Sequence record: PP925839.1
Length of the DNA: 64,000 nt
From: Escherichia phage PinkRuby
Direction: 5' to 3' (one strand)
Part shown: piece by piece, positions 28,247 to 28,822 of the stretch
Layout of the letters: each line of letters opens with the position of its first letter
Position numbering within the stretch: the stretch's first letter is position 1
Made by a program: the position numbers and the translations under genes
Notes under the pieces: model-generated
What the model was told of the DNA's origin: nothing
Seen by the model: the letters and a program-made list of their open reading frames with translations, nothing else
Databases searched by the model: none

Positions 28247-28460
28247 ATTCTACTTCCTCACCCGTTCCCAAATCATATTCAACTAAACGAATAGGTTCAT
28301 GAATGCCATATCCCTGAACAGAAATTTCTGTTGTAGGATAAATTCCATCAATATCACCCATATTCCATGCTTCATTAAATTGCTGTTCGCCTGAATTACT
28401 AAACCACTCGGCGAAAGCATTTAACACATCTTTAGAACCTTCAATAATTATCTTTGCCAT
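28239..28460 (-). CDS. Hypothetical acidic protein
   Basis: 73-aa ORF. Confidence 0.5.
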   Translation of the reverse strand: MAKIIIEGSKDVLNAFAEWFSNSGEQQFNEAWNMGDIDGIYPTTEISVQGYGIHEPIRLVEYDLGTGEEVEYD

Positions 28461-28822
28461 TACAAACTCTCAGTAAATGTACGAGCGATAACGTCGCGCT
28501 GCTGTTCCGGAATCAGAGAGTTAAAGCGAACTGCATAACCGGATACACGGATGGTCAGCTGCGGATATTTTTCCGGATGCTTAACTGCATCTTCCAGAGT
28601 TTCACGACGCAGAACGTTAACGTTCAGGTGTTGACCACCTTCAATTTTAACCGTAGGCTGTGGTTCAATTTCAATTTCACGGGCATGCAAACCGTAGAAA
28701 ATTTCCGGGTCTACAAAAGAGTCCTCTTTAAAGGTTTTAGAGACAATAATTCGTGCTTGAATACCATCTTCAAAATAAATAGTACCTTTATGCGTGCCTT
28801 CAAGAATTTGATATGCTTTCAT
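28460..28822 (-). CDS. Autonomous glycyl radical cofactor (GrcA/YfiD-like; T4 Y06I-type)
   Basis: 120 aa; C-terminus [60 protein letters not shown] is near-identical to recalled E. coli YfiD glycyl-radical domain. Confidence 0.85.

Follow-up and report, generated by a model that had tools for sequence, protein, structure and literature searches.

At positions 28460–28822 on the minus strand of the window, which is the whole 64,000-nucleotide stretch of DNA analysed here, lies a small gene whose product ends in a near copy of a host glycyl radical domain. The locus raises the question of what a phage would do with such a domain and where the domain came from. We consider it highly probable that the gene, the counterpart of T4 vs.6, encodes a phage GrcA that repairs oxygen-cleaved host pyruvate formate-lyase (PFL) and may thereby feed formate to the phage ribonucleotide reductase NrdD, with a radical half taken from Escherichia grcA. 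The core of this finding, that T4 vs.6 is a spare part for PFL, has been known since 2001 and is not new, given the biochemistry of Wagner et al. 2001, as relayed by a later review, and the RefSeq annotation of T4 vs.6 as GrcA. Relative to the literature found, only the host-derived patch and the formate-to-NrdD hypothesis go further.

Gene identity: the vs.6 coding sequence (28460..28822, minus strand) is an open reading frame of 120 codons plus stop and the ortholog of T4 Vs.6, also named Y06I. In a pairwise protein alignment, Vs.6 and its T4 ortholog NP_049730, which RefSeq calls ‘autonomous glycyl radical cofactor GrcA’, have the same length and agree at 118 of 120 residues (98%). The gene is flanked by vs.7 and vs.5, as in T4, and its place next to vs.7 and vs.5/vs.4 is seen in T4, PP01, Mosigvirus, Jiaodavirus, and Karamvirus. 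A 24-kb stretch of the window is 96–97% identical to several T4-like phages, and the window phage is a Tequatrovirus. The sole Pfam domain in Vs.6 is Gly_radical (E=3.9e-18), matched by residues 61–101 at profile positions 66–106; the barrel domain is absent. E. coli GrcA (PDB 6owr) is matched at E=5.9e-41, which settles the fold, and the next structure match is the C-terminus of pyruvate formate-lyase (3.6e-25). A single-sequence AlphaFold2 model, with a mean pLDDT of 33.9 and a pTM of 0.27, was of too low quality to be searched by fold and played no part in this. The family phrog_1209 covers the full protein (residues 1–120 of a 121-position profile, 1.7e-61), and the best NCBIfam match is TIGR04365 (GrcA; 150.2 bits, E=3.3e-44, residues 20–120). 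This score falls under the curated equivalog cutoff of 170 bits because the N-terminal half of Vs.6 is diverged: it aligns with the N-terminal region of GrcA with many substitutions and two gaps. The same half is conserved across T4-like homologs, and T5-like proteins share merely its opening MKAYQ. An earlier note on this DNA, made from the letters alone, had called the product a GrcA/YfiD-like spare-part protein; the 98% identity to T4 Vs.6 and the rank of GrcA as best structure and NCBIfam match bear this out.

The radical domain: the C-terminal 60 residues of Vs.6 are identical to E. coli GrcA at 59 positions, the sole difference being T104I, and residues 58–120 are identical to PflB 697–759 at 48 of 63 positions. 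The motif RVSGYAV, read from the sequence at 28529..28549 (minus), holds the radical glycine G95 (codon 28538–28540, minus), which aligns with GrcA G102 and PflB G734; over the longer alignment, Vs.6 22–120 corresponds to GrcA 28–127. In every phage homolog examined, the C-terminal domain is retained in full, radical glycine included. The near-identity to YfiD/GrcA and the radical glycine motif that the earlier note had reported are thus both present, the alignment with E. coli GrcA and T4 Y06I that it proposed as a check returns these same identities, and the glycine whose loss it had named as the observation that would tell against it is conserved. Codon 104 (28511..28513, minus), ATT, gives the window protein a private Ile; T4 Vs.6, 81 of 81 host GrcA proteins, PflB, and each of the other phage homologs examined have Thr here. 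An exact-sequence look-up of the window protein in a collection of 15 billion sequences returned no match, and the best matches in a phage tblastn with Vs.6 were 99.2% identical, none reaching 100%. I104 may reflect genuine polymorphism or an error in sequencing.

Expression context: vs.6 sits in a run of tightly packed phage genes on the same strand. Its Shine-Dalgarno sequence GAGG (28827..28830, minus) lies 4 nt 5′ of the ATG and overlaps the stop codon of vs.7 (TGA, 28829–28831). At the other end, the stop of vs.6 and the start of vs.5 share one base in TAATG (28458..28462, minus), an overlap that is kept in 11 of 11 T4-like genomes aligned and is read here as translational coupling of the two genes. 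A scan for sigma-70-like promoters ran at chance level, with 14 found against 13.6 expected, and the closest minus-strand MotA-box-like sites 5′ of vs.6 are about 2 kb off, at 30844 and 31271; for these reasons, no dedicated promoter is assigned to vs.6, which is probably transcribed within a longer transcript. The neighbourhood is rich in host-takeover and counter-defence genes, among them the vs.4 Acb2 homolog, regB, vs, and the tk.4 phosphatase. The open reading frame at 27980–28246 (minus), two genes downstream of vs.6 in the position of T4 vs.4, matches PF24729 (Acb2/Tad1 hairpin domain) at E=7.1e-20. Proteins of the Acb2 type soak up the cyclic nucleotides that serve as defence signals and so counter CBASS. 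In the vs.8 position, the open reading frame at 29155–29742 (minus) has the Walker-A-like motif GGRQSGKST, without a significant Pfam match, and may encode an uncharacterised P-loop protein.

At the DNA level, vs.6 falls into two parts of different kinship. The 3′ 185 nt (gene positions 179–363) are 97.3% identical to grcA in 5426 of 5426 complete E. coli genomes, a match much too close for chance, and the first 178 nt have no DNA match among those same genomes. BLAST extends the grcA match at most over 28460–28644. Within it lies the Escherichia-derived patch at 28472..28642 (minus), codons 61 to about 117, which encodes the glycyl radical domain. The phage-type 5′ half, at 28643..28822 (minus), comprises codons 1–60, has no E. 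coli DNA similarity, and encodes the diverged GrcA N-terminal region. The switch at the 5′ end is sharp: in all the Tequatrovirus and Mosigvirus genomes checked, the junction comes immediately behind GTTAAAATT, at codons 60/61. Longer BLAST matches to E. coli grcA in some Mosigviruses (query 155–384) had hinted at other tract ends and at independent events; this reading was discarded, as base-by-base comparison gave the same junction and BLAST had extended through a partly similar stretch. In GC content the 3′ half (47.5%) stands apart from both the 5′ half (35.6%) and the entire window (35.3%). Compared with E. coli grcA, the patch contains four synonymous changes and one non-synonymous change, and its frame is intact. 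Of phage type for the most part are the final three sense codons, GAG AGT TTG or CTA, common to Slopekvirus and Pseudotevenvirus; variants among them are GAA in T4 and AGC in PP01 and RPN187. Because these last codons are phage-type and vs.6 still overlaps vs.5 in TAATG, we read the host tract as an internal patch of about 170 nt, 97–98% identical to Escherichia grcA, and not as a fusion into flanking host DNA.

The donor of the patch was sought by comparing the 3′ 183 nt with the grcA genes of E. coli and 80 other species. The window agrees with E. coli grcA at 178 of 183 positions, T4 at 180, and the Mosigviruses at 177–181. The best non-Escherichia hosts, mostly Citrobacter, agree with the Tequatrovirus and Mosigvirus phages at 164–167 of 183 positions (165 for the window), and the grcA genes of E. 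coli and Citrobacter agree with each other at 170 of 183. Since the phages are nearer to E. coli than E. coli is to Citrobacter, the donor, as judged from these identities, is Escherichia and the transfer is younger than the Citrobacter split. The patch is also the sole match of the window to an E. coli chromosome: the remaining 63.6 kb (1–28459 and 28823–64000) gave no megablast match to any of the 5426 chromosomes, and the other window hits are tRNA genes on plasmid records. These hits cover about 37720–37873, in the tRNA cluster, and are 83–92% identical to tRNA-Tyr/Thr on plasmid records of about 100 kb from 255 E. coli genomes. The cluster itself holds 11 tRNA genes at 37435–38455 (minus): Arg, His, Asn, Tyr, Met, Thr, Ser, Pro, Gly, Leu, and Gln.

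Homologs of Vs.6 occur in 1588 phage records that include T4-like, T5-like, Aeromonas, and jumbo phages; at least 80% of the vs.6 length is matched in 743 records, and 505 phage records contain a match to E. coli grcA of at least 95% identity. The patch is present in the Tequatrovirus and Mosigvirus genomes sampled and absent from the other phage groups sampled, that is, Jiaodavirus, Slopekvirus, Karamvirus, Pseudotevenvirus, Krischvirus, T5-like, Aeromonas, and jumbo phages. These other groups encode a near-identical radical-domain peptide with DNA that is 64–85% identical to E. coli, so that synonymous sites have drifted apart beneath a peptide that hardly changes, which speaks for selection. 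They gave no sign of tracking their hosts: in a sample of 81 host grcA genes that is without K. pneumoniae, K. oxytoca, Aeromonas, and Y. enterocolitica, the best identity was at most 162 of 183, within the host–host range (median 153). Because the other groups encode nearly the same peptide and none comes closer than 162 of 183 to a sampled host, we take the family to be a long-standing phage line of full-length GrcA homologs, whose N-terminal half is conserved and peculiar to it. The 3′ half of vs.6 is, by the same comparisons, a recent copy of Escherichia grcA recombined into this older phage-lineage homolog.

The history of the patch can be read in two ways. Tequatrovirus and Mosigvirus are 89–91% identical over the 5′ 150 nt of the gene and 96–97% over the patch, with private differences only. 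One 5′ junction is shared across the phages, and the private mutations are star-like. This pattern would fit one recent transfer spread by phage–phage recombination, or equally well repeated conversion. The mosaic structure of vs.6 was not found in the literature searched, and BLAST users may have seen it.

Proposed function: the biochemistry that bears on Vs.6 comes from the T4 protein. According to the account in PMC8683613, E. coli YfiD and T4 Y06I were found by Wagner et al. 2001 (pmid 11444864) to be radical-activated by the PFL activase and to restore oxygen-cleaved PFL in vitro; the 2026 review PMC13450708 cites the same work in its references. Repair of host PFL, one of the two roles proposed in the earlier note, is therefore established in vitro for T4 Y06I, as that account has it, and is no new hypothesis. 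For the window protein, we envisage the following sequence of events. First, host PflA, a radical-SAM enzyme, would act on the RVSGYAV loop of Vs.6 and take a hydrogen from its G95. Second, upon cleavage of PflB by oxygen at G734, Vs.6 would dock in place of the lost radical domain. Third, the radical would move from G95 to PflB C419, and the conversion of pyruvate and CoA to acetyl-CoA and formate would resume. Docking and radical transfer to PflB are the mechanism described for GrcA (PMC8683613, PMC13450708), and the N-terminal region of GrcA affects the efficiency of radical installation by PflA (PMC13450708). The features on which these three steps would depend can all be read in window Vs.6, namely the motif with its radical glycine and a sequence nearly identical to GrcA and PflB, and the biochemistry is carried over from the 98%-identical T4 protein in vitro to a window protein that has I104.

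In a fourth step, Vs.6 may sustain anaerobic or microaerobic energy metabolism after T4 shut-off and supply formate to phage NrdD/NrdG for dNTPs. T4 silences transcription of the host genome and breaks down its DNA. With host expression shut off, the infected cell would presumably be unable to make more GrcA. We infer both a benefit in vivo, for which the candidates are ATP or formate for the phage anaerobic ribonucleotide reductase, and the coupling of formate to NrdD. In the literature searched, no deletion phenotype of vs.6 in vivo turned up. The gene is one of 11 T4 open reading frames of unknown function that are conserved in five of five other T4-like genomes (Nolan et al. 2006, PMC1524935), and T4 genetics did not identify such conserved open reading frames as essential (PMC1524935).

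The same likeness to the host could also serve interference. Vs.6 might act as a decoy or modulator that titrates PflA or occupies PflB or TdcE, including the intact non-radical enzyme, and so diverts or slows host fermentation; it might also serve another host glycyl radical enzyme such as TdcE. The make-up of Vs.6, in which the host radical domain is mimicked almost perfectly and the N-terminal half has diverged, would suit such a role, all the more as the N-terminal region of GrcA influences radical installation by PFL-AE and GrcA also acts on full-length inactive PflB in vivo (PMC13450708). The place of vs.6 among host-takeover and counter-defence genes (the vs.4 Acb2 homolog, regB, vs, and tk.4) points the same way. 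However, T4 Y06I restored PFL activity in vitro rather than inhibiting it, in the account of PMC8683613, and the radical glycine and C-terminal domain are kept in every homolog examined, as expected for a catalytically competent cofactor. We therefore regard the decoy as improbable and retain repair of PFL as the role of Vs.6.

The formate link: the window also carries a class III ribonucleotide reductase (RNR) and its activase, in the interval 8191–10475 given for them by the earlier note. The nrdD gene (8658..10475, minus) matches PF13597 at 1.8e-171 and Gly_radical at 1.2e-25, and nrdG (8191..8661, minus), encoding the radical-SAM activase of NrdD, matches Fer4_12 at 1.4e-48 and Radical_SAM at 6.4e-07. 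Both lie about 18 kb from vs.6 and share no operon with it. T4 nrdD carries a group I intron; as nrdD in the window is one uninterrupted 605-aa open reading frame, it appears to be without the T4-type intron. PFL is the cell's formate source. Formate is the reductant of class III RNRs, and the literature considers a site for it in T4 NrdD (PMC4493059, citing Mulliez 1995). The link between vs.6 and NrdD is thus likely to be metabolic, with PFL-derived formate passing to the class III RNR and nrdD as a candidate consumer. The phage groups that have a grcA homolog also carry NrdD (T4-like, T5-like, Aeromonas T4-like, and jumbo phages), whose gene occurs in 2913 phage records. In the Yersinia jumbo phage fHe-Yen9-04 (Eneladusvirus), the grcA homolog (1495–1857) lies between nrdD (1–1099) and nrdG (3070–3345), separated from each by small open reading frames; this is the only synteny seen that joins the spare-part gene to a class III RNR. 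The suggested coupling of formate to NrdD draws on this group-level co-occurrence and the one case of synteny, and not on a record-by-record intersection.

A bolder reading builds on this coupling. In Tevenvirinae that infect E. coli, recurrent gene conversion from host to phage may keep the radical half equal to the grcA of the current host, and vs.6 may serve in vivo to supply phage NrdD with PFL-derived formate under fluctuating oxygen. If it were true, which we find possible and on the whole doubtful, vs.6, nrdD, and nrdG would form one functional anaerobic dNTP module, and the mimicry would be maintained by recombination rather than selection alone.

A more direct link to the reductase would make Vs.6 a spare part for phage NrdD itself, replacing an oxygen-cleaved C-terminal radical domain and being activated by NrdG, as the earlier note had offered for its second role. 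The two genes nrdD and nrdG are in the same genome, Vs.6 and NrdD both match Pfam Gly_radical, and the fHe-Yen9-04 homolog stands between nrdD and nrdG. Moreover, a role in nucleotide metabolism was suggested by Nolan et al. 2006 (PMC1524935), and reviews leave room for spare parts of glycyl radical enzymes other than PFL (PMC8683613, PMC13450708). The sequences argue otherwise: BLASTP of Vs.6 against the window NrdD gives E=4.2 over a stretch outside the radical loop, so that the loops are unaligned, and the loop of NrdD reads RRTCGYLG against IRVSGYAV in Vs.6. No sequence mimicry of the NrdD radical domain was found in this comparison. The radical domain that Vs.6 does copy is that of PFL (59/60 to GrcA, 48/63 to PflB), and its DNA was copied from host grcA, so Vs.6 is shaped to fit PFL; in addition, about 18 kb separate vs.6 from nrdDG in the window. 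We judge repair of NrdD by Vs.6 very unlikely, and this suggestion of the earlier note is abandoned in favour of repair of PFL. That the similarity stems from a stray host fragment without function or from chimeric assembly, as 97% identity of the 3′ half to host DNA and its host-like GC might suggest, has practically no chance of being right and is excluded by the conservation data, since the same mosaic and junction recur in independently sequenced genomes (505 records at least 95% identical to grcA, 743 matched over at least 80% of the length), the frame is intact with four synonymous changes against one non-synonymous, the Shine-Dalgarno sequence and the coupled downstream start are preserved, and phage groups far removed from one another conserve the family at full length.

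The gene shows T4-like phages to carry a repair part for an enzyme of host central metabolism. This bears on how phages replicate in the gut, where oxygen fluctuates, and on phage therapy directed at Enterobacteriaceae. The host-identical patch, for its part, is a clean and datable case of recombination between a virulent phage and a host chromosome. No papers came up in the literature on phage grcA as an auxiliary metabolic gene, and among titles and abstracts on ‘autonomous glycyl radical’ and ‘phage’, none concerned the evolution or in vivo role of the phage gene.

Of the known systems, the radical domain of T4 NrdD may be set beside Vs.6 first. The two share the Pfam Gly_radical family and a radical Gly followed by Tyr, but NrdD differs in its activase, NrdG, and its loop sequence, and has no significant pairwise similarity to Vs.6 (E=4.2). 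The short GrcA paralogs GrcA2 and GrcA3 (NF008341 and NF038360; about 80 aa) match the same C-terminal 60 residues of Vs.6, which scores 90 and 103 bits, below the respective cutoffs of 145 and 158; these proteins are without the full N-terminal half present in Vs.6. The C-terminal domain of PflB (PDB 1h16, 697–759) is identical to Vs.6 at the 48 of 63 residues noted above, with G734 equivalent to G95. Unlike PflB, Vs.6 has neither the catalytic barrel nor C418/C419, and it would be able to act only together with a PFL core. E. coli GrcA is likewise a standalone glycyl radical protein of about 14 kDa with RVSGYAV and with an N-terminal region that is weakly but recognisably homologous. GrcA has 127 aa compared with 120 in Vs.6, their N-terminal 60 residues are diverged with gaps, and grcA resides at the host ung-grcA locus whereas vs.6 resides in a run of phage genes. 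The closest relative is T4 Vs.6, with the same neighbours, the same TAATG overlap, and the same host-derived 3′ patch and junction. The T4 protein has H73 and T104 where the window protein has R73 and I104, and the adjoining vs.5 encodes 73 aa in the window compared with a 177-nt coding sequence (58 aa) in T4.
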